64,000 nt of DNA from Burkholderiales bacterium (GTDB lineage: Bacteria > Pseudomonadota > Gammaproteobacteria > Burkholderiales > SG8-39), in NCBI GenBank assembly GCA_027493935.1, contig JAOSJV010000010.1:547930-611929 (forward strand), written 5' to 3'. How positions within the stretch are numbered: position 1 is the first letter of the stretch; every line of letters begins with the position of its first letter. Below are positions 13,396-40,827 of this stretch, one piece after another. The translations under genes were made by a program, and so were the position numbers. The notes under the pieces were generated by a model, which was not told the DNA's origin, ran no database searches, and worked only from the letters and a program-made list of their open reading frames with translations.

Positions 13396-13544
13396 CTGCC
13401 GCGCTGCGTGGTTTAGGGTACTCGTCGCATTCTACCAACGCACTAGTCCGACCCGAGTGCAAAGTTCACGCGATGGTCCGGCCGCGCGTTGCCAATTGCG
13501 CCGAAAGTCCGCCGGGCCGAGGCCGAGCCTGAAGCGCCACCGGC

Positions 13545-15377: not shown

Positions 15378-15423
15378 GCTGCCCGGCGGGCATCGCCGTG
15401 CCGCGTGCGCGCGACGGCCGCCA

Positions 15424-17248
15424 TCACCGCTCCGGCCTTGCGCGGTCGCGCCACGCGTCGAGCGCGCGCGCCACCGCCTCCAGCACCGGCCCCCAGGCGC
15501 CAGGCGCCGACTGCCGGAAGAGTCGCGCGGCCGGGTACCACGGCATGCTGTCGCCGGACACCCCGTAGCGCCATTCGGGAACGAAGGGCAGCATCGCCCA
15601 CGTGGCCCGCCCGGTCGCCCCGGCCAGCTGCGCGACGGTATTGTCGATCGTGATCACGAGATCCAGGGCGCCCATCAGCGCCGCGGTTTCGGCGAGATCC
15701 GTCAGGGCCTCCGGCAGCCGGTGGATTAGCACGCCGTGCGCCTGCCGGATCTCCGCCAGCTCGGCCTCGGTGCAGTCGTGCTGCAGGCTCACCCAGCGCA
15801 CGCCCGATGCGTGCAGCGCCCGCGCGAGCATCGCGAGCGGGACGGAGCGTGCCGGTCCGCGCGAGCGTGCCGTCCCGCCCCGCCACGATAGGCCGACCCA
15901 CGGCCCCTCCCCGAGCCCGGCGAGTCGCCTTCGCCACGCAGCGACGCGCCGCACGCTGCCGGCCAAGTACGACTCCCGGCGCGGAAATTCGGCGCGGGTC
16001 CCACGCAAGTACATCGGCAGGCTTGCGATCGGCACATGGTAGTCGAGGCGCGCTCTGCTCATGTCGTCGGCCGGGCTCTCGGCGCTCCCGAGAACGGTCG
16101 CGCGCGGGAACGAGTGCCGGTAGAGGGAGACCAAGCGCGCGTCGCATTGGATCACGCATCGACCTGCCCTTTCGATCAGATCTGGCAGGCAGGAGGCGAA
16201 CAGGATCTCGTCGCCCACGCCCTGCTCCGGCTGTACCAGGATGCCACGGTCGGCGAGGTCCTCGCCCTGCCACCGCGCCGGCGGAGGCGTCGTGGGGAGT
16301 CGCGGCCGCGCGCGGTCCTCGGACAGGAGCCGCAACTCGTAATCGGGCCAGCCCTCGCCGAAGCGCCCGAGCGCGAGCAGGGTGATCGCGCGGTGAAAGC
16401 GCGCGGAAACGTGGTCGGGAGCGTGCGCGAGAGCGCAGCCGAATGCCTTCAGCGCAGCGTCGAAGCGCCCGAGCTCGTGCAGCGCGGCACCCCCTGCGGG
16501 AGTGTACGTTGGCGTCGTCTACACCGAGCTCGAGTGCCCGGTCGAGCGCGGCGAGCGCCGGCTCCGCGTCGAACGCGCCGCGCAGGTGCAGTGCTCCGAG
16601 AGCGGCGAACGCCGGTGCGTGATCCGGCATGCGTTCGGTCACTTCGCGCAGCCAAGCGATATCCGCGCTCGGTACGGCGTCATCGGGCAGCCAGCCCACG
16701 AGGTTCGATAGCGCGGGCACGAAGCGTGGGTTCGCACGCAGCGCCCGCCGGAAGAGATCGAGGGCCGCCGCCCGGTCGCCGCCGCGGGCCCTGATCAATC
16801 CGAGGTTGTTCAGCGCCGCGGCATGCGTGGGATCGACCTGCAGCGCACGCTCGTAGCAGGCCCGCGACTCCGTATCGCGCCCGAGCATGGCGTAGGCATT
16901 GCCGAGGTCGACGTGCGCGGCCGCCGAGTCGGCGGGGGCGGCGTCGATCGCGGCCCTGAGCAGATCGATTGCCCGGGCCCCGTCGCCGCCCTGCGCCTCC
17001 AGCCGTCCGAGCACCCCGAGCACTCCGGGATCGCGGACACGGTCCCGCGCTACCGCCCGGCGCAGGACGCAGCGCGCCTCGTCGGCCCGCCCGGCCGCCT
17101 CGAGCGCGAGTGCCTCCGCCATGGCTGCACGCGCGCCACCGCCGTCGCGAACGCGAGCGGTGGTGCCGAGTGCCATGCGTAGGAGTTGCTTGAGCAATTT
17201 TCGCTCGCTCGTATCCCGGCCGGTGCAGCGCGTCACACTTGAGCCCAC
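15424..17248 (-). pseudogene. TPR-repeat / GT9 glycosyltransferase fusion, paralog 4; frameshift in the C5 run 16490..16494
   Basis: The TPR N-terminus is in the frame of ORF 15344..17248 up to ..LELGVDDANVH. From AALHELGRFDAALKAF.. onward it reads into the frame of ORF 15424..16335 (ILVQPEQGVGDEILF, VGLSWRGG, DLAETAALMGALDLVITIDNTVAQLAGATG). Confidence 0.8.
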
Positions 17249-17398: not shown

Positions 17399-17749
17399 AT
17401 GGCGTTGATGTCTCTGTTCTCGCGCAAAGAGATCACTGAGTTCGCGAAAGGCCTCGCCGTCAGCTTGTCCAAACGCTATCCGCCGGCCCTGGACTTCAAT
17501 CCGGAGAAGCGCGTCTCTGAGAACCGCCTCACCAAGGTTCTCGAGGACACGCTCCACCAGGCGGTCGAGTTCCAGCAGAAGCACAAGCTTGGTCTGTTCG
17601 GCAAGGCGAAGCTAGGCAACGAGTTCCGCTGGCAACTCAAGGAGCTCGGATACACCGAGAAGTTCGTCGAGGTCGCCACGGAGGGCCTGATGGTGTACAT
17701 CACGCGCGGCTCGGCCGGCAACGCCTCGCAGAGCAAACAGCCGGGCTGA
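17399..17749 (+). CDS. Hypothetical protein (116 aa)
   Basis: ATG ORF preceded by AAGGAG. Its composition is protein-like and non-repetitive (MALMSLFSRKEITEFAKGL...). I recognise no family. Confidence 0.5.
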   Translation: MALMSLFSRKEITEFAKGLAVSLSKRYPPALDFNPEKRVSENRLTKVLEDTLHQAVEFQQKHKLGLFGKAKLGNEFRWQLKELGYTEKFVEVATEGLMVYITRGSAGNASQSKQPG

Positions 17750-17843: not shown

Positions 17844-19547
17844 TCAACCACCGCCGCCTGTCACGCCGCTCCGCTCGACCTCGTCGATCTGCTCGGGATC
17901 GAGGAACTGGCGTGCGTACTGCAGATAGACCCCGCTGCGGACGAATATGTCAAAGAGGTCCGGATCGATGTGCCCGTTCTGCTTGAACTGGCCCAGGATC
18001 CGCAGCGACTCGGACAGCGTCTTGCCCTGCTTGTAGGGCCGATCCTTGGCGGTCAGCGCCTCGAAGATGTCGGCGATGCCCATGATGCGCGCCTGCACCG
18101 ACATCTGCTCGCGCGTGAGCCCCCGTGGGTAGCCCTTGCCGTCCATGCGCTCGTGGTGGCCGCCGGCGTACTCCGGTACGTTCTTCAGGTGCTTCGGCCA
18201 GGGCAGCGCCTCGAGCATCTTGATGGTCGAGTCGATGTGGTGGTTGATGATCTCGCGCTCCTCGGTGGTGAGCGTGCCGCGCGCGATGGTCAGGTTCTTG
18301 ATCTCGTCCTCGGTGAGGAAGTCGGCGGTGTTGCCGCTGATCTCGCGCCACTTGTAGCCGGTGCCGATGCGGCGCACCCGCTCCTGCTCCTCGCGCGACA
18401 TCGATTCGCCGCCGATGTTGCAGCGGCGCACGAACTTGCGGTCCTCGTCGAGCTGGCGCAGCCGTTCGCGCAGCTGCTGGTCGATCTCGAATAGCCGGGT
18501 GCGCTGGGTGATCTCGTCGATATCGCGCCGCTTGGCGAGCTCGAGCCTGCGGCGCATCGCGTCGAGCTCGGCGTCGCGGATCAGGACCTCGAAGCGCGTG
18601 TCGACCAGATGGATGCGGTCGAAGATCGTCTCGAGCTTGGTCGCCTTGTCGACGACGTGCACCGGAGTGGTGATCTTGCCGCAGTCGTGCAGCAGCCCGG
18701 CGATCCTCAGCTCGTAGCGGTCCTTGTCGGTCATGCAGAAGTCGGCGAGCGGACCCTCGCTCGCCGCGTCCGCGGCCTCTGCGAGCATCATGGTGAGCTG
18801 CGGGACCCGCTGGCAGTGCCCGCCGGTATACGGCGACTTCTCGTCGATCGCGGTGTTGATCAGCTCGATGAACGACTCGAACAGGGCCTCGAGCTGGATG
18901 ATCAGGGCGCGGTTGGTGAGCGCGATGGCGGCCTGCGAGGCGAGCGACTCGGCGAGCCGCTGGTCGGAGTTGGAGAAGGCGACGATCTCGCCGGTGGCGA
19001 GATCCTGGCAATTGATGAGCTGCAGGACGCCGATGATCTCGCCCTCGTGGTTCTTCATCGGTACCGTCAGGAACGACTTCGAGCGGTACCCGGTCTTCTG
19101 GTCGAAGCGGCGGGTACCGGAGAAGTCGAAGCCCTCCTCCGTGTAGGCGTCGGCGATATTCACCGTCCTGCCGGTGAGCGCCGCGTACGCGGCTACCATC
19201 GAGTTATTCGGCTCGCCGTCGCGGTAGAGCTGGATCGGGAAGAAGGGGATCGGATTTCCGGTGGTGCCGCCGAGAGCAATGTTGAGCGAGGCCGTGCGGA
19301 CGATCTCGAAATGCAGCTCCGGATGACCGTCGCCGCCTCTTAGCAGGTAGAGCGTGCCGCCATCCGCACGCGTGATGGTCTTGGCGGCGACGAGAATCTT
19401 CTCGAGCAGCGCATTGAGGTTCTTCTCGAGCGAAAGCGCCGCCCCGATCTCGTTCAGCTGGTCCAGCCGGCGGAACAGATCGTCGGTCGTGTCGGACGGT
19501 CCTCGCGCCCCGGTCCCGGCCATTGGGGCGACGTTCGTGCCTGGCAT
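17844..19547 (-). CDS. GAF-domain HD-GYP phosphohydrolase (putative c-di-GMP phosphodiesterase) with a large insertion inside the HD domain
   Basis: Start at ATG 19547, with AGGAGG upstream, 11 nt after the stop codon of the ATPase gene. It has an N-terminal GAF domain, then HCQRV ... LLHDCGKITTP and a distal HHERMDGKGYPRGL signature. Confidence 0.85.
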   Translation of the reverse strand: MPGTNVAPMAGTGARGPSDTTDDLFRRLDQLNEIGAALSLEKNLNALLEKILVAAKTITRADGGTLYLLRGGDGHPELHFEIVRTASLNIALGGTTGNPIPFFPIQLYRDGEPNNSMVAAYAALTGRTVNIADAYTEEGFDFSGTRRFDQKTGYRSKSFLTVPMKNHEGEIIGVLQLINCQDLATGEIVAFSNSDQRLAESLASQAAIALTNRALIIQLEALFESFIELINTAIDEKSPYTGGHCQRVPQLTMMLAEAADAASEGPLADFCMTDKDRYELRIAGLLHDCGKITTPVHVVDKATKLETIFDRIHLVDTRFEVLIRDAELDAMRRRLELAKRRDIDEITQRTRLFEIDQQLRERLRQLDEDRKFVRRCNIGGESMSREEQERVRRIGTGYKWREISGNTADFLTEDEIKNLTIARGTLTTEEREIINHHIDSTIKMLEALPWPKHLKNVPEYAGGHHERMDGKGYPRGLTREQMSVQARIMGIADIFEALTAKDRPYKQGKTLSESLRILGQFKQNGHIDPDLFDIFVRSGVYLQYARQFLDPEQIDEVERSGVTGGGG

Positions 19548-19558
19548 CGCGCGCCCTC

Positions 19559-21919
19559 CTACTTGATGCAGACCGCGCGCACCTGGGCGATGTCGGTGAT
19601 GCCCATCAGCACCTTCTCGACGCCGTCCATCTTCAGGGTGCGCATCCCCTCCTCCAGCGCCACGGCGAGAATCTCCGCCACCCGCGCGTGTTCCTGGATG
19701 AGCTTCTTGATATGATCGCTGCCGACCAGCAGCTCGTGCAGGCCGACCCGCCCCTTGTAGCCCGAGCCGCCGCAGGCGTCGCAGCCGGCCTTCTGGTAGA
19801 GCGTGAACTGCCCCTGCTCGTTGCCGAAGGTCTTGATCCACTCGCGGTACACGGCCTCATAGGCCGACTTCGGGTCCTTCTTGAACGAAGCGGTATTCAG
19901 CAGTTCCTGGCAGTACTCCGTGATCAGCGCCTTGACCTCCTCCTGTCCGGGGCTGTAGGCCGCCTTGCACTTCGAGCACAGCCGCTTCGCGAGGCGCTGC
20001 GCCAGCACGCCGAGCAGGGCGTCGGCGAAGTTGAACGGGTCCATACCCATGTCGAGCAGGCGGATGATCGACTCGGGCGCGCTGTTCGTATGCAGGGTCG
20101 CGAACACCAAGTGGCCGGTGAGCGAGGCCTCGATGCCGATCGCGGTCGTTTCCTTGTCGCGCATCTCGCCGACCATGATGATGTCCGGATCGGCGCGCAG
20201 GAAGGCCTTCATCACCGTGGCGAAATCGAGTCCCGCCTTGCGGTTCACCTGCACCTGGCGCAGACCCTTCTGCGTGATCTCGACCGGATCCTCGGCCGTC
20301 CAGATCTTGGTATCGGGCGTGTTCAGGTACTTCAGGATCGAGTGCAGTGTGGTCGTCTTGCCCGAGCCGGTCGGCCCACAGACGAAGAACAGACCGTAGG
20401 GCTTCTCGACGGTCGCCTTCAACGCGCCGAGGTTGTAGGGCGAGAGGCCGAGGTTCTCGAGCGGGATCGGTTCGCCGGCGGCCAGGATCCGCATCACGAC
20501 GTCCTCGACCCCACCGGCGGTCGGGATCGTGGCGACGCGCAGTTCGATGTCGAGCGGGCCGAACTTCTTGAACTTGATCTTGCCGTCCTGCGGCTTGCGG
20601 CGCTCGGAGATGTCGAGGTCGCACATGATCTTCAGGCGCGCGACGAGCGAGTTGCGGTAGGACGCCGGCACCTCGATGTAGGGCGCGAGCGAGCCGTCCT
20701 TGCGGAACCGGATCTCGGTCTTCGCCTTGCCGGGATAGGACTCGATGTGGATGTCGGACGCGCCCTGCTGGTAGGCCTCGACGATGATCTTGTTGACGAG
20801 CTTCACCAGCTCGTTGTCGGCGGCCGCGGAGAGGTCGTCGTTGCCTGCGTCCTCGGACCCCTCTTCGTCCATCCCCGAGAGGAGATCGCCGATGTCACCG
20901 ATGTCGAGGTCGGCACCGAAGAATTGGTTCAGTGTTTCCTTGAATTCGCGCTGGGTCGTGACGACGTACTTGATGCGCCCCTTCTGGAACACGTTGTTGA
21001 CGATCCGCGAGCTCTTGATGCGCTCCGGATCCAGGCACATGACGAGCAGGCCCTCCTTGTTCTCCTCGAGCGGAAGCCACTGGTTCGCGTCGACGTACTC
21101 ACGCTTGAGGTTCTTTAGCAGGTCGATCGGCTTCACGCGCTCGGGCTTGAACGGCTCGTACGGAACGCCGAAGAACTTCGACAGCGCCGCGCCGAGCGCC
21201 GGCAGCTTGACGTTGAACTCCTCGATCAGCGCCGCCTCGATGTCGGTCGCCTTCTTGCGCGCCGAGCGCGCCGCGAGTTCGAACTCGGCGGCCGAGATCA
21301 CCGCGTCGGCCACCAGGAAGTCGTACTTGGTCTTGAGCAGTGCCGGCTTCTGGCGCTGGCGGAAGGCGATCGCGAGCGTCTGGCATAGCTCGGTCACACC
21401 CTCCTCGGCCACGTGCCCGAATGGCTGGCCGGACTTGTTGTTGATCAGCTGCGCCACGCCGATCAGGTCGCCCTTTTCGGGGTCTAGGATCGGCGCGCAG
21501 AGCATTTGCTTGGTGCGGTAGCCGGTGCGCTTGTCGACCTCCTGCAGGAACCGCAGCGACGGGTGATGGCGCTTCAGCTCGGACTCGTCGTAGACATCAT
21601 TGAGGTTAAGGAGCTTCTTCGACATCGCGCAGTAGCCGGCAATCGAGTGCTCCGCGATCGGCAGCTTCAGGTCGCGGAAGGAGTTCAGCCCGATCTTGAC
21701 CTTTGAGATGATCGTCGCCTTGTCGTCGCCGGTGGCGTAGATCGTCAGCCGGTCGGCGTTGAACAGGTGACAGATGTCCGCGCTCACCTCCAGCATTATC
21801 TCGTCGATGTTGCTGGTGGCGTGGATGCGGTTCGTGACGATCTGCAAGCTCTTCTGGAAGGCGAGTCGGGAGTTGACGTCACCCGAGGCGGCAGACGCAG
21901 GGCTCAGCACGGCGCTCAT
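19559..21919 (-). CDS. GAF-domain-containing GspE/PilB-family secretion/pilus ATPase
   Basis: Start at ATG 21919 (MSAVLSP). The N-terminal GAF domain is about 190 aa and is followed by a T2SSE_N-like region. The ATPase core has Walker A GPTGSGKTTT, Walker B DPDIIMVGEMRD, a His box TGHLVFATLHTN and a tetra-Cys site (CSKC...CDAC). Confidence 0.9.
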   Translation of the reverse strand: MSAVLSPASAASGDVNSRLAFQKSLQIVTNRIHATSNIDEIMLEVSADICHLFNADRLTIYATGDDKATIISKVKIGLNSFRDLKLPIAEHSIAGYCAMSKKLLNLNDVYDESELKRHHPSLRFLQEVDKRTGYRTKQMLCAPILDPEKGDLIGVAQLINNKSGQPFGHVAEEGVTELCQTLAIAFRQRQKPALLKTKYDFLVADAVISAAEFELAARSARKKATDIEAALIEEFNVKLPALGAALSKFFGVPYEPFKPERVKPIDLLKNLKREYVDANQWLPLEENKEGLLVMCLDPERIKSSRIVNNVFQKGRIKYVVTTQREFKETLNQFFGADLDIGDIGDLLSGMDEEGSEDAGNDDLSAAADNELVKLVNKIIVEAYQQGASDIHIESYPGKAKTEIRFRKDGSLAPYIEVPASYRNSLVARLKIMCDLDISERRKPQDGKIKFKKFGPLDIELRVATIPTAGGVEDVVMRILAAGEPIPLENLGLSPYNLGALKATVEKPYGLFFVCGPTGSGKTTTLHSILKYLNTPDTKIWTAEDPVEITQKGLRQVQVNRKAGLDFATVMKAFLRADPDIIMVGEMRDKETTAIGIEASLTGHLVFATLHTNSAPESIIRLLDMGMDPFNFADALLGVLAQRLAKRLCSKCKAAYSPGQEEVKALITEYCQELLNTASFKKDPKSAYEAVYREWIKTFGNEQGQFTLYQKAGCDACGGSGYKGRVGLHELLVGSDHIKKLIQEHARVAEILAVALEEGMRTLKMDGVEKVLMGITDIAQVRAVCIK

Positions 21920-22129
21920 GTCATCGCATCCTGTATGGTCTGCAGCCGGTGCCAATCCGGTCGCGCAACGCCCACGCAATCGAGTGCCACGGGTCCCGGC
22001 GGCGCAGCAGGACATGCTAGTCTCCGGGCCGGTGCCGGGCAACCGTGGGCTGCCGGGCGATGCGGCTTATTGCGGCCGTGGGGCGGAACCCGCCCGGCCA
22101 GGGCGCTTCCGGGGGCCCGGAGCGACGTT

Positions 22130-23207
22130 TTAGCGCGCACGGCCCTCGCCTCCGCCGAGACCGCCCTCGAGCACGAAGGCGCGCAGCCCCCGCTGGGCGA
22201 GCAGGAACGCGGCGGCCGCGCTGCGCCGCCCGGTCTGGCAGTACACGACATACTCGCGGGACTTGTCGAGAATCTTCACGGCGTTGCGGATCTCGGCGAG
22301 CGGGATGTTGATCGCTCCGGGAAGCTTGTCGTACTGGTACTCGGACGGATAGCGTACGTCGAGCCACTGCCCGCCTCGCGCTACCTTCTCGCGCGCGATC
22401 TCCATGTTCACGCCGTGCAAGAGCGGCTTCTTCAGCAGCTCATTGAAATCGTTCTTGTCCAAGCGCAGTAGCGTCCCGTCGGTCAGCATCGTGACGGTCG
22501 CGTTGCGTTTGGCGTTGGCCACCAGCGCCTCTTCCCCCGAACGCATCTCCGCTCTTGAGCTCGGCGAGCCGCATGCTGACCCCGCCGACCGATCGCTCGA
22601 CCAGGCACTTGCCGGTCTCGACGACGTAGTAGTAGTCGCCCTCGGCGCCCTCGCGAATCACCACGTCGGCGCGCTTCGCCGTGACCCGCTTGAAGCGCTT
22701 CAGGAGCTCGTTGATGTGCGCGGTGGGGAGTTGCGAGAAAGCGCCACCGGCCTTGAGATTGTTGATGCTGAACAACCCAGTGAGGATGGCCCAGTTGCCG
22801 ATCGAGGGCGCTTCGGCGGCCGGGCTCCGCTTGGCGTCTTCCTCGGCGGCGGCGAGCTGGTCCCAGGTCACCATGATGTCGAGCAGATCGTCGTCGATCC
22901 GGATCATCTCGACGTCGGTGATCGCCTTCGCCGAAGCGAACGGCGTCTTGCGCCCGATCGGGTGGCGCGCCTCGACGGTGCCGCCGACCACCACCTCGGA
23001 GCTGCCGTTGCCGAGGATCAGGGCGAGCTCGCCCTTGAGCAAGTAGACCAGCTGGCCGGCGACGCCCTTCACGCGGAACGGGTCGAGCGTCTTCGAGACG
23101 CGCTCGACGAACGTGAGCTCGGCGAGCTCGGCGAGCCGCGTTCCGGATAGTGCGGCGATCGGCTCCAGGCCGCGCAGCGTTTCAACCTTGACTTTGTCGC
23201 TCGACAT
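22130..23207 (-). pseudogene. Cyclic-nucleotide-binding domain protein with a C-terminal rhodanese domain; frameshift in the C5 run 22534..22538
   Basis: MSSDKVKVE... ADVVIREGAEGDYYYVVETGKCLVERS..LAELKSGDAFG is in the frame of ORF 22440..23999. The continuation EEALVANAKRNATVTMLTDGTLLRLDKNDF plus the rhodanese part (WLDVRYPSEY ... VVYCQTGRRS) is in ORF 22130..22546. Confidence 0.8.
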
Positions 23208-23251
23208 ATTCTCGGGTATCCGTGGCTCGTGGTGCGCCGGCGCACGGCCGG

Positions 23252-24019
23252 CTATATCTCGAAGACCTGATTGTTCTGCAGCATCCGCGGGCGGTACTGC
23301 CCGGCGTACTCCTCGATCTCCTCCATCGAGAGTTCGATTTCGCCGGGCTTCAGGTGGGTGATGAAGATCTCGGCGCTCCGCTCGAGCTTGGCCAGCTCGT
23401 CGGCGAGCATGCTGGGACAGAGGTGCTTGGACATGACCGCGAGCTGCTTCTCCTTGTTCGAAAACGCGCACTCGATGATCAGGTACTTCAGGTTGGCGAT
23501 CCGGTTGACGATCGGCCACAGCTCGTCGTTGGTGGTCGTGTCGCCGGTGAACACCAGGCTGCCGCCGCCGCTGTCGAGCTGGTAGCCGATCGCCGGCACC
23601 ACGTGGTTGGCGGGCAGCACTGTGATGCGCCGGCCGTCGAGCTCGACGGTCTCGCCGAGCCCGATCGCCTGGTAGCGCAGGAACGGCGCCTCGGCGCTCG
23701 GAATCTGCGTGAAGTCCGGCCAGATGCTCCAGTTGAAGATGTGGTTCTTCAGGATCTCGATCGTCGCCGGGATCGCGTACACGGTGAGTGGCTTGTCGCG
23801 CATCTGGCCGACGGTGTCGACCATGAACGGGATCGACGCGATGTGGTCGAGGTGCGAATGGGTCAGGAACACGTGATCGACCGGCGTCAGCTCGGCGAGC
23901 GTCAGGTCGGCGACGCCGGTGCCGGCGTCGATCAACACGTCCTGGTCGAGCAGCATCGAGGTGGTGCGCAGGTGACGCCCGCCGATGCCGCCGCTGCAAC
24001 CGAGGACCCGCAGCCTCAT
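23252..24019 (-). CDS. Class II 3',5'-cyclic-nucleotide phosphodiesterase (metallo-beta-lactamase fold)
   Basis: 255 aa with MRLRVLGCSGG ... LTHSHLDH (HxHLDH signature) and overall CpdP/PDE1-like collinearity. Confidence 0.8.
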   Translation of the reverse strand: MRLRVLGCSGGIGGRHLRTTSMLLDQDVLIDAGTGVADLTLAELTPVDHVFLTHSHLDHIASIPFMVDTVGQMRDKPLTVYAIPATIEILKNHIFNWSIWPDFTQIPSAEAPFLRYQAIGLGETVELDGRRITVLPANHVVPAIGYQLDSGGGSLVFTGDTTTNDELWPIVNRIANLKYLIIECAFSNKEKQLAVMSKHLCPSMLADELAKLERSAEIFITHLKPGEIELSMEEIEEYAGQYRPRMLQNNQVFEI

Positions 24020-24032
24020 CCTTGCGTCCCGC

Positions 24033-26263
24033 CTACTTTTCCGCGAATGTCGTCACGCCGTCCCACCGTCCCGCAGGCGGGTGCGCGCGCAGGCGCGCGA
24101 CGCGCCCGGCATAGATCTCGTACAGGGGTATCTGCGGGTATAGCCGCTGCATGTTGAACAGCGCGAGCTCGGCCTGGTCCCAGTCGCCGGCGCGGTAGGC
24201 CTTGAGCGCCTGCTGCCACAGCCTGAGCTCCTCGGCGCGCGGCTTGCCGACCGCGCCTTCCGGCCCGACCGGCTCGTAGATCGCCACCGGCGCGTCCTTG
24301 CCCTTGACCCGCACGCGATCGAGTTCGCGGAACACCATCCCACCCACCGCCTGGCGGGTCGCCTCGCCAACGATGATGCCGACGCCGTACTGCTTCGTCA
24401 GGCCTTCCAGCCGCGACGCGAGGTTGACCGCGTCACCGAGCACGGTGTACGCCTTGCGCAGCTGCGAACCCATGTCTCCCACCCGCATCGGCCCGGTGTT
24501 GATGCCGATGCCGATCCTGAGCTCCGGCCAGCCGCGCGCGCGGAACCGCACATTCAATGGTCCGAGCGCCGCCTGCATGTCGACCGCCGCGGCAACCGCC
24601 TGCGCGGCGTGGCGCGGCTCGCCGACCGGCGCCCCCCAGAACGCCATGATCGCGTCGCCGATGTACTTGTCCAGCGTGCCGCGATGCTCGCCGATGACGC
24701 GGCTCATCTCGGTCAGGTACTCGTTCAGGAGCTGCGAGAGCTCCCGCGGCTCCATTCCTTCGGCGATCGACGTGAAGCCGCGGATGTCCGAGAAGAGCAC
24801 CGTCAGCTCCTCGCTGCGGCCTTCCATGGTGTACTTGCCCGGGTTGCGCGCCATCTGGTCGACCAGCTCCGGCGGAACGTACTGGCCGAAGAGCTCCGTG
24901 AACTGGCGCTTCGCGCGCGACTCGACGAAATAACCGTACGACATGTTCAGCGCGAACATACCGACGGTCATAAGCAAACTGCTTGCCAAAGGCAGGGCGA
25001 GATGGGCCGTTTGCCACACGCCGACGTTCAAACCCGCGTACCCGGCGAGCGCCGCCCCGGCAGCGAGCGTGGCCCGCAGGGGCGAGAGCATCGGCAGCAG
25101 CAAGGCGAGCGCCAGACCACCCGCAACCAGCAGCACCATCTCGGCCCCGAGCGCGTAGGGGGCCGGCCCTTGAGCGTCCCGTCGAGCATTCCGGCGATCA
25201 GGTTCGCGTGCACCTCGACGCCGGGGAACGCCCGGTTCACGGGGGTCGCCCGCAGATCGACTAGCCCCGGCGCCGAGGTGCCGACGAGCGTGATGCGGCC
25301 GCGCAGTCTCTCGGGCGGCACCCGGTCGAGGTAGACGTCGATCAGCGACAGGTAGGGGAAGGAGCGGACGTCGCCGCGGTAGGGGATCAGCGCGGCGGCG
25401 TTCTCGTCCACGGGGACGCGCAGCTTGCCGACCGCGAGCCACTCCAGGCCGCTGTAGGTCGGGGTCATGAACAGATCGGGCGGATAGCCGGGCTCGATCG
25501 GCGGGAAGCCAAGCAGCATACGCACCAGGGCGAGAGCGAGCGGCTCGTAGTAGCGTCCCTGGTACTCCGCGAGCATCGGCACGCGGCGCACGACGCCGTC
25601 CTCGTCCACCACCGGGTTGAAATGGCCGGCCGCGGCCGCCGCGGCCTGGAACGCCGGCAGGTTGCCGCCATAGCCGCCCCAGCGGGTGAACGGAATCGCC
25701 CGCCCGGAGAACGTGCCCGCCGGCAGCACCGGAGCCGGAATCGCGCCGTGCGCCGCGCGGCTGCCGGCCTCAGCCTCGCTGGTGAAGTAGTAGCCGAGGA
25801 CGACCGGCCGGCCTCTGATCGCGCGCGCGAACCGGGCGTCGTGATCGAGTTCCGGGCGCAGCCGCCCAAGCGCGGTCTGGAACTCGACGTTCTCCTTGAG
25901 CTCGCCCGCGGCGAGCCGCTCGAGGACCGGCAGCCCGCTGGAGGCGTCCGGCTCGGCATTCACGACGTCAAAGCCGAGCGCCGCGATCCGGTACTTGTCG
26001 AACAGCTTGTCGACCAGCGCGGCGACCTTGTCGCGTCCCCATGGCCAGCGTCCAAGCTCGGGCGCCGCAAGGCTCTTCTCGTCGATGTCCAGGATGACGA
26101 TGCGTTCGTCGACGCCGCCCGTCATGGTCAGGCGCAGACGCGCATCGTAGATGATGTAGTCCAGCCGGTTGACCAGCTCGATCTGGTAGAACTTCGCAGC
26201 GTGGCCGGCGAACAGCGCGAGCACCGCGAGCCCCAGCACGATCCTCGCGAGATGCTTCCTCAC
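24033..26263 (-). pseudogene. CHASE2-sensor class III adenylate/guanylate cyclase; frameshift in the G5 run 25158..25162
   Basis: The CHASE2 part is in ORF 25028..26263 (..IVILDIDEKSL..GRWPWGRDK.. up to LIAGMLDGTLKGRP). The TM segments and cyclase domain are in ORF 24033..25442 (YALGAEMV.., LTVLFSDIRGFT, KYIGDAIMAFWGAP, YTVLGDAVNLASRLE). Confidence 0.88.
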
Positions 26264-26336
26264 CGCGTGCGCCTCCGGGCCGCGTCCGAAATCTGGCTGC
26301 CGTTCGTCCGGCCAGTGCGCCCTGGCGCGCGGCCCG

Positions 26337-27155
26337 TCAGGTCTTGAAGAAGAACTCCATCTTGACGCCGGCGAGCTCGAGCACGTCGTGGTCGTTCAGC
26401 GCGTGCGCCTGCGCATCGAGCGACTTGCCGTTAACGATCGGGAAGTTCGCACCCTCGACGTGGGTGATGAAGTAGCCCTGCGGCCGGCGCGTGATCACCG
26501 CCACCTGCACGCCGGGCTTGCCGAGAGTGGTCAGCGCCTTGGTGAGCTCCATCTCTTTGCCGGCGTTCGCGCCGGAAAGGATCTGGATCGAGGCGACGCG
26601 ACCCGAGGCCATCGGCTGCGAACTCGCCATTGCGGGCTGCGGCTGCGACTGCGCGTTCAGGATCGGCATCGGCTGCGGGGCGCCTGCGGCTGGCGACCCT
26701 GGCGTCGCCGGCGGCGGGCTCATCGTCGGCATGCCCTGCGAAGAGGACATCGTGCCCATCGGCTGTAAGGGGCCCGGGCCTGCGACCGGCGCGCCGGCCT
26801 TCGGCATCGCGCCGGGCCGGATGACCATGGTCTTCTCGAAATCCTGCTGCCCCTTGGCCGCGGCGGGCGCGTCCGAGATGTACTTGAGCTTGTACTTGCC
26901 GAGCTCGATCACATCCGCGTTCTGCAGGAAGTGCTTCTTGATCGGCTGTCCGTTCACCAGCGTCCCGTTCGTGCTGCCGAGGTCCTCCAAGAACGAGTCG
27001 TTGAGGATGGTGACGATCACGGCGTGCTCGCCGGACACCGCCAGGTTGTCGATCTGGATGTCGTTGTGCGGCTTGCGGCCGATGGTGGTCCGCTCTTTCG
27101 TGAGCGTGATCTCCTTCAGTACCAGCCCATCCATACTGAGAATCAGCTTCGCCAT
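26337..27155 (-). CDS. FHA-domain protein (N-terminal FHA, Pro/Ala/Met-rich linker, C-terminal FHA-like domain)
   Basis: Start at ATG 27155 (MAKLILSMDG). The FHA signature reads TIGRKPHNDIQIDNLAVSGEHAVI ... GSTNGTLVNG. The second beta-rich domain ends ...NDHDVLELAGVKMEFFF. Confidence 0.85.
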   Translation of the reverse strand: MAKLILSMDGLVLKEITLTKERTTIGRKPHNDIQIDNLAVSGEHAVIVTILNDSFLEDLGSTNGTLVNGQPIKKHFLQNADVIELGKYKLKYISDAPAAAKGQQDFEKTMVIRPGAMPKAGAPVAGPGPLQPMGTMSSSQGMPTMSPPPATPGSPAAGAPQPMPILNAQSQPQPAMASSQPMASGRVASIQILSGANAGKEMELTKALTTLGKPGVQVAVITRRPQGYFITHVEGANFPIVNGKSLDAQAHALNDHDVLELAGVKMEFFFKT

Positions 27156-27169
27156 GGCAGTGTCCCCAC

Positions 27170-27994
27170 TTATCTCAACCAGCCGAACAATCGCGACACC
27201 CAACCGCGCGGAACCGAGAAGTCGCGCAGCACGCGCACCAGGATGACGGACACGTTGTCGCGCCCGCCGTTGTCGTTCGCCATCTGCACCAGCTGCTGCG
27301 CGGCGAGCTTCAGGTTCGCCGACAGCGTCTGCACCGTGAGCCCGATGTCCTCGTCGGTCACCATGTCGTTCAGGCCGTCGGAACACAGCAGCCAGACGTC
27401 GCCCGGACGGGTGTCGTACTCGCGGATCTCGGGCTCCACCGTCGGGTCGATGCCGAGCGCGCGTGTGACGAGATTCTTGTTCTGCGAGAACCGCGCCTGC
27501 TCGGGCGTGATCATGCCGCTGTCGATCTGCTCCTGCAGCAGCGAGTGGTCCTTGGTGATCTGCTCGAACACCTCGTCGCGCAGCCGGTACACGCGCGAAT
27601 CGCCGATGTGCGCGATCAGCACCCGGTTGTCGTAGAACACGGCCGCCACCAGCGTGGTGCCCATCCCGGCGTACTGCGGCTGGCTCTGCGCCGCCTGGAA
27701 GATCGATGTGTTCGCCTTCTCGATCTGCTCGCGCAGCATCCGCTCGGCGTACGGTCGGCCATTCAGCGGGTCGGCGCGGTAGGGCGGGTTGTCCTCGAGC
27801 AGATGCTGCAGTTCGGTCGTGATGACGGTCGTGGCCATGCCGCTCGCCACTTCGCCCGCGTTGTAGCCGCCCATGCCGTCGGCGAGCACGACCAGGCCTT
27901 TCGAGGCATCGGCCGCGATCGAATCCTCGTTGTGAGATCGAACGATGCCCGGATCGGTGCAGCTCGCGATCTCGATGGCCTGGCTGAGGTTCAT
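27170..27994 (-). CDS. PP2C-family Ser/Thr protein phosphatase
   Basis: Start at ATG 27994 (MNLSQ). Motifs present: RSHNEDS, LADGMGG, HIGDSRVY, LLCSDGL and GGRDNVSVILV. Confidence 0.9.
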   Translation of the reverse strand: MNLSQAIEIASCTDPGIVRSHNEDSIAADASKGLVVLADGMGGYNAGEVASGMATTVITTELQHLLEDNPPYRADPLNGRPYAERMLREQIEKANTSIFQAAQSQPQYAGMGTTLVAAVFYDNRVLIAHIGDSRVYRLRDEVFEQITKDHSLLQEQIDSGMITPEQARFSQNKNLVTRALGIDPTVEPEIREYDTRPGDVWLLCSDGLNDMVTDEDIGLTVQTLSANLKLAAQQLVQMANDNGGRDNVSVILVRVLRDFSVPRGWVSRLFGWLR

Positions 27995-28016
27995 GTTCCG
28001 ATCGTCTCTTGCGCGG

Positions 28017-30584
28017 CTACAAGCTGATGTCCACCGAACGGATGCCGGGGTCGGGCGCGGGCGCCGCACAGGCGCGCAGCGCGGCAGCGAACTCCTCGCC
28101 GGTCTGGTAGCGCGCCTCGGCGTCCTTGGCCATCGCGCGCTCGAGAAACTGGGCGATCGCCGGCGGCAGGCCCGGGTTGAACGACAGGATGCTCGGCGCC
28201 GGCGCGTTCGCGATCTTGAACATCAGCTGCGCCATCGACTCGCCCTCGAAAGGCAGCCGTCCGGACAGGAGCTGGTACAGGCTCACCGCCAGGGAGAAGA
28301 GGTCGGAGCGACCGTCGATGCGACGCCCGGCGAGCTGCTCGGGCGACATGTACGACGGCGTGCCGAGCACCATGCCGGTCCTGGTTTTCGAGGAATCTGT
28401 GATGCGAGCGATGCCGAAGTCGGTCACCTTGACGGTGTCGGAGTCCGGCTCGTACATGATGTTGGCCGGCTTGATGTCGCGGTGCACGATGCCCTGGCGG
28501 TGCGCGTAGCCGAGCGCGTCGGCGACTCGCGCCACGATCGATATCACCCGCTCGGCCGGCTGCAGCTTCCCGGCTTTGGTGTACGGCGTGAGATCCTGAC
28601 CCTTGAGGAACTCCATCGCGATGTAGGCGAGGTCGTGCTCCTCGCCGGCGTCGAAGATCGTGACGATGTTCGGGTGGTTGAGCCGACCGGCGGTCTCGGC
28701 CTCGCGGAAGAAGCGCTCGCGCACGTCGGCAAGCTCGTCGGGCTCGAACTCCTGCGCAAGCGCCATCGTCTTGATCGCGACGACGCGGCCGATCTTCGGG
28801 TCACGTCCCTGGTAGACGACGCCCATCGCGCCCTTGCCGAGCTCCTTCTCGACCTGGTAGCGCCCGAGCATCGGCTTCTCGACGGTGCCTGCGGTCATGA
28901 TGCTCTGGTTGGTGCGCGCACCGGTCGCTGCGCCGCCGAGGATCACCGTCTCCGAGAGCTGCTTTGCGCGCGAGACCTTCTCGCCGACGTCGCGGAACTT
29001 CGGGTTGTGCTCGGCGACGTAGCGGTAGACCGCCTCGGCCTTGTTGAACTGGCGCTTGCGCTCGAAGTCGAGCGCGAGGTTGTACAGGTTGTCGAGCACC
29101 GCCTCGTCGACCGGTTTCACCTTGCGGAACTTGTCGAACGCCATTTCGAGCTGGCCCTGACCCTGGAACGCGAGGCCGAGCATACGGTTCGACTCGGCCG
29201 ATTCGGCGTCGGACTTGAGCTTGCCAGCCTCGGTGACCAGGAACCGCTTGGTCGTGAGCAGCAGGTAGCCGACCAGGAGCAGCGTGGCAGGGAGCATCAG
29301 CTGCAGCCACATGCCGCGGCCGGTCATCAGGCCGAAATGCGCGCCGACGAGCGCAACGAACAGCACCGCGGTCGCGATGAACGCCATGCCGGCCCCGATC
29401 CGCGGCAGCAGCACGATCAGGTAGAGCCCGATCGCCAGGAACACGCCGGTCTCGGCCCACGGCGCCCACGACGGCACGATGAAGAAGTGCTCCTGCAGGA
29501 TCGACGACACGGTGTGCGCAAGCGTCAGCACCGGCGCCATGGCGGGCGACACCGGCGTGACCGAGGCGGTGCCGACCCCGGCCGCGGTCGGCCCGATCAG
29601 CACGATCTTATCGCGGTACTTGTCGACCGGGATCCTGCCGGTGAAGACGTCGAAGAAGGAGTCCACCGGGAACGCCGGCCGGCCGCCGCGGTCCTTGTAG
29701 AAGTAGGTGTGCATCTGCAGCTTCGCGTCGGTCGCGATGCGCAGGTTGGCGAGGCTCACCCCGCGGCCGAGCTCCACGCGCACGTCGGCGACGTCGAGGT
29801 TCAGGCTCCTCGCCGCGACGAGCAGCGCTAGCGATGGATAGATCTGATCGAAGTGCGCAAGGACGAGCGGCTCGCCGCGAATGCCGCCGTCGACGTCCAA
29901 GCGCGCGTTCAAGTGCCCGATTCCGGCCGCGTGCCGACCGATCTCCGCGATCGGAAAGATCACGCGGGCGGTCGTAGTGAACGGCGGCTCGGGCGAGGCG
30001 CCGTCGACATTCGCGATCGCGTTGCGCGTGACGTAGTCCGGCAAATCGCGCTCCGACCGGCCACGCGGGTCGCCGAGCTCGAACAGCATCGGCAAGAGCA
30101 CGTTGCCCGCCCGCTGGTAGCTGCGGGCCAGCTTGCGGTCGGTGTTCAGCGCCTGCTCCGCCTCGGCGAGGATTGCGCCGATCCGCGCGAGCGGGGCGCC
30201 CAGGTCGAGCCCGCCGCGGTTGGGTACCGCGCGCTGGTACTCGGCGAGCAGCGAGTTCACGTATACGAGTCCCGGGTCACGCTGCGGCTCGGTGAGGAAC
30301 ACCACGCTGCCGATCGCTTTCGCGGCTGCGCCGGCGAGCTGTTCGGTAAGCCGCGCGTGCACGTCGCGCGGCCACGGCCAGCGGCCGATGTTCTGGATGC
30401 TCGCGTCGTCGATCGCGATCACCGCGATGCGGTCGCTCGGCGTGCGATCGGTTGCGCGCACGCCGAGGTCGTACGCCTTGCGCTCGAGGCTCCGGATCAG
30501 ATCGGAGGAGCCGGCGACGGCGAAGGCGAGCGTCACCGCCAGGCCGAGGAACCAATCCTTCCTCCAGAATGCAGCCTTCTGCAC
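28017..30584 (-). CDS. CHASE2-sensor, TPR-containing Ser/Thr protein kinase
   Basis: Intact 855 aa. The order is an N-terminal CHASE2 domain (IAVIAIDDASIQNIGRWPWPRD), TM segments, TPR-like repeats, then a Hanks kinase (GKGAMGVVY, HRDIKPANIM, DFGIA, GTPSYMSPEQ). Confidence 0.9.
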   Translation of the reverse strand: MQKAAFWRKDWFLGLAVTLAFAVAGSSDLIRSLERKAYDLGVRATDRTPSDRIAVIAIDDASIQNIGRWPWPRDVHARLTEQLAGAAAKAIGSVVFLTEPQRDPGLVYVNSLLAEYQRAVPNRGGLDLGAPLARIGAILAEAEQALNTDRKLARSYQRAGNVLLPMLFELGDPRGRSERDLPDYVTRNAIANVDGASPEPPFTTTARVIFPIAEIGRHAAGIGHLNARLDVDGGIRGEPLVLAHFDQIYPSLALLVAARSLNLDVADVRVELGRGVSLANLRIATDAKLQMHTYFYKDRGGRPAFPVDSFFDVFTGRIPVDKYRDKIVLIGPTAAGVGTASVTPVSPAMAPVLTLAHTVSSILQEHFFIVPSWAPWAETGVFLAIGLYLIVLLPRIGAGMAFIATAVLFVALVGAHFGLMTGRGMWLQLMLPATLLLVGYLLLTTKRFLVTEAGKLKSDAESAESNRMLGLAFQGQGQLEMAFDKFRKVKPVDEAVLDNLYNLALDFERKRQFNKAEAVYRYVAEHNPKFRDVGEKVSRAKQLSETVILGGAATGARTNQSIMTAGTVEKPMLGRYQVEKELGKGAMGVVYQGRDPKIGRVVAIKTMALAQEFEPDELADVRERFFREAETAGRLNHPNIVTIFDAGEEHDLAYIAMEFLKGQDLTPYTKAGKLQPAERVISIVARVADALGYAHRQGIVHRDIKPANIMYEPDSDTVKVTDFGIARITDSSKTRTGMVLGTPSYMSPEQLAGRRIDGRSDLFSLAVSLYQLLSGRLPFEGESMAQLMFKIANAPAPSILSFNPGLPPAIAQFLERAMAKDAEARYQTGEEFAAALRACAAPAPDPGIRSVDISL

Positions 30585-31055
30585 CGAGCCCGATCCCCGA
30601 ATGATGTTGTTGTCGTTATGCGCAGCCGTCGTGCGACATCAGCGGCATTCTACGCCCCCGGTTCCGCGCCCCTGCCGCGGCCGCGCCGCGGGCGGGCGCT
30701 GGCGCTCCGCCGCGACGCCCGCGGCTCGTAGGGTACGGCCGGATGTCCGCGAAAACCGGCCTGGACCGTCGATCAACCGCGCATCCGCGCTATTGGTTCG
30801 CTAAGTCCCTGAAGAAACAGCAGCATAATGCGCATTCTTACAGTCGGATATGAATTTAGTCAAATTTTTGCCGAGGTGTCGTCCGGCGGGCCCGCGGCCG
30901 TCGGGGGCTGCGGCGGCCCGCCGGACGCACGCCTGATCGATACCGAGGGGGAATGGCACCGGCCGGGGCCGCACGGCGCAGGCCGGACGCGCCGGGGCCG
31001 CGTGCCTGAGGGCGGCGCGGAGAAGCGGCGTGGAGAAGCAGGCCGGGGCGCGACT

Positions 31056-31996: not shown

Positions 31997-33268
31997 TCAG
32001 GCTGCCTTCTTCGGCGGCGCGCTGAAGGCGCCGGCCTTGCGCAGCGACTCGATCCGCGCTGCGTCGTAGCCGAGCACCTCCTTCAGCACCTCGTCAGTGT
32101 GCTCTCCGAGAGTCGGCGAGCGCCGGATCGCCGCCGGCGAGGCCGAGAGCTTGATCGGCATGCCGACGTTCCACCACCTGCCGCGCTGCGGATGGTCGAG
32201 TTCGACCCACATGTCGCGCCCGCGCACGTGCTCGTCGTTGGCAAGGTCCTGGGTCGACATGATCGGGCCGCATGGCACGTCGAGCGGATTCAGGATCGCC
32301 ATCAGCTCGCGCTTGGTGTAGTTCTCGGCGAACTTGTTGATCAGCGTCCACATCAGCGCCTGGTTCTTGCGCCGGTCGGCGATGGTGGCGAAGTGCGCGT
32401 CGCCGGCGAGGTCGGGCATGCCGAGCTCGGGACCGATGCGCTTCGCTAGCGCGTTCCACACCGCCTCCTGCACGACGATGTAGAGCCAATCGTTGGCACC
32501 GTGCGGCTTGCAGTGGATCGCGTTGCCAAGCTGCCCGCCTCCGGAGTCGTTGCCGGCGCGCGGCACCTCGCCCATGCCCTGGTAGGTGGGCACCGAGTAC
32601 TCCGCCAGCTCGCTGCGCATGAGGCGCTGGTGGTCGCGGAACTTGACGCGGCAGAGATTCATCACCCCGTCCATCATCGCCACCTCGACGTACTGCCCCT
32701 GCCCGGTGCGCTCGGCCTGCCTGAGCGCCGCGAGCAGCCCAATCGCGAGGTGCAGGCCGGTGCCCGAGTCGCCGATCTGGGCGCCGGTGACGAACGGCGG
32801 GCCGTCCGGTACGCCGGTGGTGCTCATCGCCCCGCCCATCGCCTGCGCCACGTTCTCGTAGGCCTTGAAGTCGGCGTAGGGGCCGGTCGAGCCGAAGCCC
32901 TTGATCGAGCCCATCACGATCTTCGGATTGATCTCGTGGATCTTCTCCCACGAGAAGCCGAAGCGGTCGAGCACGCCCGGACCGAAGTTCTCCATGACGA
33001 TGTCGCACTTCGCGAGCAGGTCGACGAAGATCCGCTTGCCCTCGGCCGACTTCATGTTCACGGTGATCGACCGCTTGTTGCAGTTGAGCATCGTGAAGTA
33101 GAGGCTGTCGGCGTTCGGCACGTCGCGCAGCTGCCCGCGCGTCGCGTCCCCCTGCGGGTTCTCGAACTTGATCACGTCGGCGCCCATCCAGGCCAGGAGC
33201 TGCGAGCAGGTCGGCCCGGCCTGCACGTGCGTCATGTCGAGAATTCGTACCCCCTTCAGTGCTTCCAT
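31997..33268 (-). CDS. frc: Formyl-CoA:oxalate CoA-transferase
   Basis: Start at ATG 33268 ([36 protein letters not shown]). 423 aa, family III CoA-transferase collinear with Frc. It forms the C-terminal part of the artificial 1026-aa track ORF. Confidence 0.9.
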
Positions 33269-33327
33269 GCTGATCTCCGATGACTTGGCGCCGGGCGAAG
33301 GATCACCCGCCTGCGCGCGAATCCCGC

Positions 33328-40816: not shown

Positions 40817-40827
40817 GGCGGATGCGC

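Follow-up and report, generated by a model that had tools for sequence, protein, structure and literature searches.

A putative cAMP-centred signalling operon with a PilB-family ATPase, conserved in several betaproteobacterial families

Bacteria use type IV pili for adhesion, twitching, DNA uptake and biofilm formation. The motor that extends the pilus is tuned by cyclic di-GMP (c-di-GMP) and by partner proteins, and to our knowledge direct binding of cyclic AMP (cAMP) is not among its inputs. In Pseudomonas aeruginosa, whose cAMP-pilus circuit comprises CyaB, CpdA, Vfr, Pil-Chp and FimL/FimV, cAMP acts via Vfr, pilA is sigma54-dependent and PilB has no cAMP-binding domain. The subject here is an eight-gene operon in a 64-kb stretch of DNA (the window) from an 880-kb contig of a Burkholderiales bacterium, in which an ATPase of the PilB/GspE family carries a GAF domain and is encoded together with a cyclase, a phosphodiesterase (PDE), a GAF-HD-GYP protein and a kinase/phosphatase/FHA trio. 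The reading favoured here, with moderate confidence, is that of a conserved cAMP-centred signalling operon whose outputs would be the PilB-family ATPase and c-di-GMP hydrolysis, with a phospho-switch in parallel and a tie to type IVa pili.

The c-di-GMP motif of MshEN, the Pfam domain formerly named T2SSE_N, is a tandem 24-residue repeat, RLGxx(L/V/I)(L/V/I)xxG(L/V/I)(L/V/I)xxxxLxxxLxxQ (Wang et al., PMC5013675). The GAF domains of Anabaena CyaB2 are cAMP-specific according to PMC4411481, and Tlr0485 is a characterised cAMP-activated GAF-HD-GYP protein according to a 2020 report.

Gene order and conservation of the operon

Eight minus-strand genes lie within 17844-30584 when open reading frames (ORFs) are read with the guidance of third-codon-position G+C (GC3). 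Their spacers, from the kinase gene to the HD-GYP gene, measure 22, 14, 73, 13, 44, 210 and 11 nt; strand, order and spacing are those already described in the initial annotation of this DNA. Domains were called with Pfam on each protein, the cyclase and the cyclic nucleoside monophosphate (cNMP)-binding/rhodanese protein being used in frameshift-repaired versions. The genes are as follows.

28017-30584, minus strand: membrane Ser/Thr kinase, 855 aa, with an N-terminal periplasmic CHASE2 domain, transmembrane helices, a near-threshold TPR and a Hanks kinase domain
27170-27994, minus strand: PP2C-type Ser/Thr phosphatase, 274 aa (PP2C_2 3.7e-17)
26337-27155, minus strand: putative FHA adaptor, 272 aa (FHA 5.7e-22)
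24033-26263, minus strand: CHASE2-transmembrane-class III adenylate cyclase (predicted), 743 aa as repaired (CHASE2 1.3e-54, Guanylate_cyc 3.4e-24)
23252-24019, minus strand: class II 3',5'-cyclic-nucleotide PDE of the metallo-beta-lactamase fold, 255 aa (PDEase_II 5.1e-16, Lactamase_B_2 2.9e-19)
22130-23207, minus strand: cNMP-binding (CAP-type) and rhodanese protein, 358 aa as repaired (cNMP_binding 1.5e-20, Rhodanese 4.6e-15)
19559-21919, minus strand: GAF-MshEN-like-PilB/GspE-family hexameric ATPase, 786 aa (T2SSE 5e-116, GAF 3.4e-10, MshEN 6e-10)
17844-19547, minus strand: GAF-HD-GYP phosphodiesterase, 567 aa (HD_5 1.8e-43, GAF 3.2e-16; Pfam HD/HD_5)

All the main domains proposed from the letters alone were recovered in this way; the TPR of the kinase fell just short (TPR_2, 26.6 bits against a cut-off of 27).

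The operon is not peculiar to this genome. A scan of GTDB with one genome per species found confirmed relatives of the ATPase in at least 594 species, including bacteria that oxidise iron or ammonia and Rhodocyclaceae associated with polyphosphate or denitrification. The best 80 of these relatives are 67-93% identical over their full length. Loci were compared by tblastn of the eight proteins, and genes were counted where no less than 8.8 kb of upstream sequence was available, which applies to 56 loci. Carriers among the best matches include Burkholderiales metagenome-assembled genomes, Rhodocyclaceae, Sterolibacteriaceae, Azonexaceae, Gallionellaceae, Sideroxydans, Nitrosomonadales and Nitrosomonas, as well as Sulfuritalea, Methyloversatilis, Propionivibrio, Herminiimonas and Noviherbaspirillum. 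Most loci keep the order kinase, PP2C, FHA, cyclase, PDE, (cNMP/rhodanese), ATPase, HD-GYP on one strand, and both order and orientation persist over several families at 60-90% protein identity. Conservation of the neighbourhood had been named beforehand as a test able to refute the proposed system, and its outcome favours the system: the gene order recurs across several betaproteobacterial families.

The genes differ in how faithfully they are kept. The PDE gene is present in all 56 loci (divergent in 5), followed by the HD-GYP gene (51/56), the PP2C and FHA genes (49/56 each), the cyclase gene (47/56) and the kinase gene (41/56, with a full-length orthologue in 38/56), while the cNMP/rhodanese gene is optional (27/56). 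The complete set, or the set lacking just this optional gene, accounts for 27 loci, and most of the others differ by one gene. In at least six loci, spread over different lineages, the kinase and cyclase genes are missing together and those for PP2C, FHA, PDE, ATPase and HD-GYP remain; this joint loss of the CHASE2 genes may indicate that the two sensors operate as a pair. The loci listed for loss of CHASE2 or the cyclase are L002, L011, L022, L027, L062, L076 and L080, besides L030.

The PDE and the ATPase stay together even where the rest changes. Noviherbaspirillum sp. Root189 has the ATPase with a divergent class II PDE and, in the place of the HD-GYP protein, a MASE1-PAS-GGDEF-EAL protein. 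Another relative shares only 44% identity with the N-terminal GAF-MshEN query region, and there the ATPase gene is preceded, at a distance of 5 nt, by a PDE_II/Apyc1-like gene. The spacer before the ATPase gene ranges from -12 to 620 nt (mostly 3-275, and 3-50 nt in many lineages), and the one between ATPase and HD-GYP genes is about 10 nt in relatives. Because the pairing of PDE and ATPase persists in Noviherbaspirillum and in the 44% relative, and the spacers are short, the functional core would appear to consist of a cNMP phosphodiesterase, a GAF-ATPase and a c-di-GMP enzyme. The CHASE2 sensors and the phospho-threonine trio would then form a usual but dispensable input layer.

The ATPase and its predicted signalling circuit

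Among solved structures, the ATPase core is closest to Myxococcus xanthus PilB (3jc8, 1e-109), then to Thermus PilF and Geobacter PilB, with GspE behind. GPTGSGKTTT, DPDIIMVGEMRD, GHLVFATLHTNSA and the CxxC...CxxC pairs, which make up the Walker A/B, Asp-box, His-box and tetra-cysteine motifs, are invariant across 83 sequences, so that the catalytic boxes and the zinc-binding tetra-cysteine of the PilB/GspE superfamily are all in place. An AlphaFold2 model of the protein is too poor for use (mean predicted local distance difference test score 47, predicted template-modelling score 0.28), the underlying alignment of 35 sequences at 78-100% identity being too shallow.

What would such a motor sense? 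Its MshEN-like domain is not a likely c-di-GMP reader. The strict MshEN motif is not matched in the window protein, and a relaxed version finds no match in it or in its 82 orthologues, although the same relaxed pattern recovers motif II of M. xanthus PilB. Since the motif is absent from all 83 sequences while the control matches, canonical c-di-GMP binding by this domain is unlikely. The GAF domain points elsewhere. It matches both Anabaena CyaB2 GAFs with an E-value of 2.8e-26 and also the PDE2A GAF-B (1e-12), and the CyaB2 match covers the nucleotide-pocket segment GYRT..L..P...IGV.QLIN, which is invariant in the 83 orthologues. The GAF domains of the ATPase and of the HD-GYP protein have a common ligand-site core, TGYR[TS]..L..P...IGV.QLIN, and both are predicted to be of the cNMP-binding type. 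In a library-wide search, the GAF-MshEN half retrieved 259 cluster representatives at E <= 1e-30; because these include full-length proteins only 31-48% identical, the GAF-MshEN-ATPase architecture reaches beyond the clade.

The second output is the GAF-HD-GYP protein. HHERMDGKGYP, LLHDCGK, GYRS, GGHHERMDGKGYP and SPYTGGHC are invariant in 66 sequences, which supplies the metal-binding and GYP residues of an HD-GYP enzyme; its nearest structures are PmGH (4mcw) and V-cGAP3 (5z7c), and its GAF domain resembles those of PDE5 (4.5e-16), CyaB2 and PmGH. The protein is predicted to hydrolyse c-di-GMP, or possibly cGAMP. An insertion of about 100 aa (18500-18800; residues ~318-413) splits the HD-GYP domain and is lacking in PmGH. 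The flanks of this insertion are conserved (TTPVHVVDK.TKL... and GTLT..ER..IN.HI), and its middle, a predicted coiled coil, is variable.

Upstream in the operon lie the enzymes that could make and destroy the messenger. Among class III cyclases, Lys with Thr or Asp marks adenylate cyclases (Thr, class IIIb) and Glu with Cys or Ser marks guanylate cyclases. After repair of its frameshift, the window cyclase has the full set of class III residues: the metal-binding D493 and D537, the substrate-specifying K533 and T607, and the transition-state residues N614 and R618, all invariant in 56 sequences. On the strength of the invariant Lys/Thr pair, its product is most likely cAMP. The PDE scores 59.1 bits against the PDEase_II gathering threshold of 23.7, and the HxHxDH motif of class II enzymes reads THSHLDH. 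Its best match in the Protein Data Bank is yeast PDE1 (4ojv). Yeast PDE1 is a class II phosphodiesterase of cAMP and cGMP. Orthologues of the window PDE also match PF23023, Anti-Pycsar_Apyc1. In the cNMP/rhodanese protein, the phosphate-binding cassette FGEEAL..RNA and the rhodanese catalytic Cys loop YCQxxRRS are invariant. The writer, eraser and reader logic of the initial annotation thus stands, as predicted from intact cyclase residues, a class II PDE, an intact cyclic-nucleotide-binding cassette and two GAF domains of cNMP type.

Two further cyclic-nucleotide proteins were seen, one near the operon and one in a relative. About 4.7 kb upstream of the operon, a Crp/Fnr-like protein (35313-35930, plus strand; cNMP_binding 7e-11) with a C-terminal helix-turn-helix-like tail is possibly another cAMP reader. 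In the Nitrosomonadales locus L041, a Pkinase-cNMP_binding fusion (17869-19242) is encoded 3 kb beyond pilA on its downstream side, which connects Ser/Thr kinases with cyclic nucleotides a second time at this locus.

The phosphorylation branch begins with the membrane kinase (CHASE2 3.5e-50, Pkinase 8e-53), which has the VAIK, HRDIKPAN and DFG motifs. The phosphatase scores above the cut-off of the NCBIfam model Stp1_PP2C_phos (256.5 bits against 230). The FHA protein consists of a canonical N-terminal FHA domain, an FExTMxxR motif, a variable linker rich in P, Q, S and M, and a degenerate C-terminal FHA-like domain; it matches TIGR03354 (VI_FHA) at 4e-12, under the cut-off. Its description as a double FHA protein is right in part. 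The N-terminal domain has the Gly-Arg, Ser-x-x-His and Asn-Gly residues, and the C-terminal domain is homologous to it (hhalign 89%, E 2.2e-6), but has GK in place of GR and no SxxH loop, and so does not show the phosphothreonine-binding residues. The FExTMxxR motif directly after the first FHA domain (residues ~105-112; 26820-26843) is at least 95% conserved. It resembles, as a lead only, the ETTSVFR phospho-acceptor of GarA/OdhI, and is a candidate target site of the kinase.

The pilA link, competing readings and the wider window

The link to pili comes from the downstream flank, where the window has two features of interest.

8191-8598, minus strand: pilA, type IVa major pilin (Pilin 4.3e-13, N_methyl 1.2e-9)
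8656-8670, minus strand: sigma54 -24/-12 element TGGCACACGGGTTGC, exact, about 60 nt upstream of the pilA ATG and the sole perfect match in 64 kb

In 50 of 82 related loci, a search for type IVa prepilin N-termini found a pilin gene on the same strand and downstream of the operon. Both the HD-GYP gene and a downstream pilin occur in 46 loci; in 28 of these, the HD-GYP gene is followed by the pilin motif within less than 600 nt, typically at 200-330 nt. A TGGCA[CT]-N5-[TC]TGC sigma54 element precedes 41 of 59 pilins in related loci. The association, which had been guessed from a pilA locus some distance away, is therefore much stronger than supposed: pilA directly follows the HD-GYP gene in most relatives. 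The window also has a divergent TPR-GT41 (O-GlcNAc-transferase-like) gene (5692-7842, plus strand). In relatives, pilA is followed by Wzy_C/O-antigen-ligase-like, TPR and GT2/GT4 glycosyltransferase genes and not by pilC or pilD (for instance L036, 14747-16198, and L009, 16818-18897), which suggests that the genes flanking pilA are lineage-variable pilin glycosylation cassettes. By tblastn, no second T2SSE ATPase (PilB, GspE or PilT) is encoded in the 64-kb window or in the 82 loci, which cover 10 kb to either side.

The favoured reading can be set out as a sequence of events. Two membrane proteins with periplasmic CHASE2 domains would sense an extracellular cue. The CHASE2 cyclase, of class IIIb by its residues and Lys/Thr pair, would make cAMP, and the class II PDE, going by its family and its invariant pairing with the ATPase, would clear it, so that the signal would be transient. 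The cNMP-type GAF domain of the ATPase would read cAMP and gate the activity of the hexamer and, through it, the extension of pili or some related function of theirs. The GAF domain of the HD-GYP protein, by analogy with Tlr0485, could read the same signal and switch on c-di-GMP hydrolysis, and the CAP-type domain would be a third cAMP reader where its gene is present. In parallel, the CHASE2 kinase and the PP2C phosphatase may set the phosphorylation of a target that is read by the FHA protein, or is that protein, which would act as a phospho-threonine-dependent adaptor in the manner of PpkA/PppA/Fha1 in type VI secretion.

A stricter form of this proposal is more tentative. It holds that Betaproteobacteria control type IVa pili by a dedicated post-translational pathway: cAMP from a CHASE2-gated cyclase would bind directly to the GAF domain on the PilB-family motor, whether this is a second, conditional extension ATPase or the sole one, a cAMP pulse would lower c-di-GMP via the HD-GYP protein, and the phospho-switch would license the motor. 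If true, this would be a direct link from cAMP to a motor, unlike transcription through Vfr in Pseudomonas or c-di-GMP acting through MshEN in Vibrio and Myxococcus. Confirmation would add a new class of regulatory input for PilB-family motors and would give CHASE2, a sensor for which we know of no ligand, a phenotype for ligand screening. The system offers a cNMP-GAF-ATPase fusion, cross-talk between cAMP and c-di-GMP, CHASE2 in two output contexts and an FHA/kinase gate outside the type VI secretion system (T6SS). All the domain families are known, and several of the pairwise links have precedents. No description of a GAF-PilB/GspE ATPase or of the operon was found in the literature covered, which leaves out most subscription journals; apparently undescribed are the joining of a cNMP-type GAF domain and a PilB-family ATPase in one protein, the obligatory association of this fusion with a class II PDE, and the operon of 7-8 genes beside pilA.

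Several observations weigh against the favoured reading. The ATPase falls below the NCBIfam cut-off for PilB (TIGR02538, 483.1 against 675.65 bits), in a match that is split in two by an insertion and spans residues 201-664. Neither the Pfam-scanned ORFs of the window nor those flanks of related loci that were annotated contain a gene for PilC, PilD, PilM-Q or a secretin, and the co-encoding with PilC, PilD and PilMNOPQ by which a PilB could be recognised is not seen there, pilA being the only such neighbour; the initial annotation had already noted that no other secretion or pilus-assembly gene is adjacent, and the Pfam scan and the tblastn search for T2SSE agree. Because no component of a machine is adjacent, the client of the ATPase is deduced only from pilA adjacency and similarity to PilB. 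pilA itself lies outside the operon transcript, under its own sigma54 promoter, and distant GAF-MshEN-T2SSE ATPases occur in unrelated contexts (acyl-CoA dehydrogenases, glutathione S-transferases (GSTs), a hybrid kinase). The cyclase, the kinase or both are absent in some lineages, so the module is not strictly self-contained. The words 'self-contained' and 'complete' had been too strong on other counts as well: two genes are frameshifted, the cyclase or both CHASE2 proteins are lost in places, the operon has no diguanylate cyclase, and the cNMP/rhodanese gene is optional. The ligand of the GAF domain (cAMP, cGMP or another) is not certain from sequence. Beyond the observed domains, catalytic residues, synteny, PDE-ATPase pairing and pilA adjacency, the remaining elements of the reading, which are cAMP as GAF ligand, HD-GYP activation, ATPase gating, the pilus as client and the FHA protein as adaptor, are inferred. 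Overall, the interpretation first put forward is partly supported.

Could the ATPase be an orphan of the PilB/GspE family? It would then serve another client, T2SS (type II secretion system)-like or an unknown export, or act purely in nucleotide-dependent signalling, and the proximity of pilA would reflect shared regulation; M. xanthus PilB has reportedly been proposed as a signalling protein in exopolysaccharide control. Such a protein could well lack platform, alignment and secretin genes near it, as is the case in the window and the annotated related flanks, and could have family members beside acyl-CoA dehydrogenases, GSTs and a hybrid kinase. It might also miss both equivalog cut-offs, as the window ATPase does (447.6 against 630.25 bits for the GspE model TIGR02533, with no gsp genes nearby), and carry a lineage-specific insertion such as the one of about 47 aa between its Zn-binding Cys pairs. 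However, its top structural relatives are type IV pilus extension ATPases and not GspE, the PilB model outscores the GspE model, and most loci, across families, have pilA immediately downstream, with pilin-glycosylation-type genes then following. An orphan ATPase is on these grounds an unlikely explanation.

The same architecture could also serve a messenger other than cAMP, with the GAF and CAP-type domains reading cGMP or another cNMP and the PDE acting as a broad cNMP hydrolase. The GAF domains do match the cGMP-binding GAFs of PDE2A and PDE5, the PDE orthologues match Apyc1, whose family is known for broad cNMP hydrolysis, and the cyclase is missing in some loci, where the ligand may come from elsewhere. 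Yet the cyclase has the Lys...Thr pair that established knowledge assigns to class IIIb adenylate cyclases, not Glu/Cys, and all 56 sequences share this pair. Of the GAF matches, the strongest is with the CyaB2 domains, which are cAMP-specific according to PMC4411481. A different messenger is thus quite improbable.

Least probable is a group of neighbours without common function or an anti-phage defence island: cNMP cyclase and PDE themes do recur in Pycsar and anti-Pycsar biology and the kinase domain matches the PADLOC PD-T4-6 and mad6 kinase models, but these matches cover the generic kinase domain only, the FHA, PDE and HD-GYP genes have no defence match, the PP2C match is weak (PDC-M21C, 3.8e-10) and the ATPase match a marginal one to the P-loop (1e-6), for which reasons the defence reading was rejected; moreover, the conserved order and orientation described above are not expected of chance or of mobile islands, the base composition is not atypical (the window has ~68% G+C), and the flanks are housekeeping genes and pilA.

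Further features lie around the operon.

9325-17248, minus strand: TPR-repeat genes and one unknown gene of 233 aa (Pfam), between operon and pilA here and absent in most relatives
17399-17749, plus strand: small convergent ORF of 116 aa adjoining the HD-GYP gene, conserved in position at 31-79% identity in about 20 related loci (tblastn)
30834-30863, minus strand: candidate sigma70-like promoter TTGACT-N18-AAGAAT (consensus scan), about 250 nt upstream of the kinase start, weak
22014-22042, minus strand: candidate internal sigma70-type promoter TTGCCC-N17-TAGCAT for the ATPase and HD-GYP genes, inside the 210-nt gap, at motif level

The 116-aa ORF has no match in Pfam, NCBIfam or PADLOC. An alignment of the spacers between the cNMP/rhodanese and ATPase genes shows that GGTTGC...CTAGCAT is kept in the window and eight related loci, and the candidate internal promoter would give the ATPase-HD-GYP pair its own transcript. 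In the same spacer, AAAAAGCCGCA precedes this element and is conserved in the window and the eight loci. An Rfam E-value scan of 7500-31500 gave no credible RNA element, only sub-threshold istR and M23; a riboswitch in the 210-nt gap is unsupported because there is no credible Rfam match and the length of the gap is not conserved. A terminator scan returned fewer sites than expected by chance.

Two operon genes are broken in the assembly, each by a 1-nt frameshift: the cyclase gene in a C5 run (25158-25162) and the cNMP/rhodanese gene in a G5 run (22534-22538). GenBank has apparently split each of them into two coding sequences, since accession numbers are skipped at both sites, with a gap of two before MCZ7565288 and another of two after it. 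The same type of indel occurs in at least five other genes of the window: TctA, TctC, oxalyl-CoA decarboxylase (oxc), formate-tetrahydrofolate ligase and a formyltransferase. TctA is spread over three frames, oxc is joined to formyl-CoA transferase via an out-of-frame stretch, and the inspected junctions coincide with short homopolymer runs (TctA, G5; oxc, T5; ligase, CC). The region 31997-43978 has many such 1-nt indels (for example 33668-33694, 38136-38179 and 42989-43021), which split or fuse its genes. Homopolymer indels are characteristic of long-read assemblies. Because the same signature pervades unrelated genes, the two frameshifts are most likely assembly artefacts, and ORF-level reading of the window therefore requires frameshift repair. 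A pseudogene reading of the two genes was rejected as the default on account of the similar indels in TctA, TctC, oxc, the ligase and the formyltransferase. It keeps formal standing because cyclase decay does occur in the clade: in L030, the closest GTDB relative (~85% nucleotide identity), a genuine internal deletion has left only residues 386-542 of the cyclase (L030 7446-7836).

Two metabolic clusters lie farther out. A sulfur-oxidation cluster (1193-5641, plus strand) encodes SoxY, SoxZ, SoxA, a SoxX-like cytochrome c and a SoxB-like 5'-nucleotidase/metallophosphatase, with MoaC upstream (531-1124). A corrinoid methyl-transfer cluster (47785-54648, minus strand) encodes a DUF1638 protein, a 1163-aa ORF with Fer2-RACo (corrinoid activation) and MTHFR domains, a URO-D/MtaA-like methyltransferase and a B12-binding protein. 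Genes for an FAD oxidoreductase and a TRAP transporter come next. The joining of RACo and MTHFR may be a further frameshift artefact.

Comparison with described systems

The MshE/PilB ATPases under c-di-GMP control, namely Vibrio cholerae MshE, M. xanthus PilB, Clostridium perfringens PilB2 and Thermus thermophilus PilF, likewise combine a hexameric PilB/GspE ATPase with an N-terminal second-messenger receptor, and the core of the window ATPase matches PilB and PilF structures at 1e-100 to 1e-110. It differs from them in that its receptor is a GAF domain of predicted cNMP type, its MshEN-like domain lacks the c-di-GMP motif, and no pilC or pilD is adjacent.

In the PpkA/PppA/Fha1 pathway of the T6SS, genes for a membrane Hanks kinase whose sensor is extracytoplasmic, for a PP2C phosphatase and for an FHA protein are likewise grouped beside a machine ATPase. 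The trio that the initial annotation had likened to it is present; T6SS genes are absent from the window, the operon does not qualify as a member of the T6SS threonine-phosphorylation pathway, and the likeness is one of analogy. In the operon, CHASE2 serves as the sensor, and the FHA protein additionally contains a degenerate second FHA domain and the GarA-like FExTMxxR motif.

In the P. aeruginosa circuit, too, type IVa pili are coupled to an adenylate cyclase, to a phosphodiesterase of cAMP and to cAMP receptors. In the present operon, by contrast, the putative receptor is fused to the ATPase, the sensor of the cyclase is CHASE2, and the PDE belongs to class II and is not of the CpdA type.

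Tlr0485 has the same GAF-HD-GYP architecture as the operon's protein, which keeps all HD-GYP catalytic motifs, and would share its proposed logic, in which cAMP feeds into c-di-GMP turnover. The window protein is unlike Tlr0485 in its HD-GYP insertion of about 100 aa and in the close translational coupling of its gene, at 11 nt, to that of a PilB-like ATPase.

The GAF domains of Anabaena CyaB2 are the best match of the ATPase GAF, including the GYRT...L..P...IGV.QL.N segment. In CyaB2 they regulate a cyclase, in positive feedback, whereas here a single GAF domain sits on a secretion-type ATPase.

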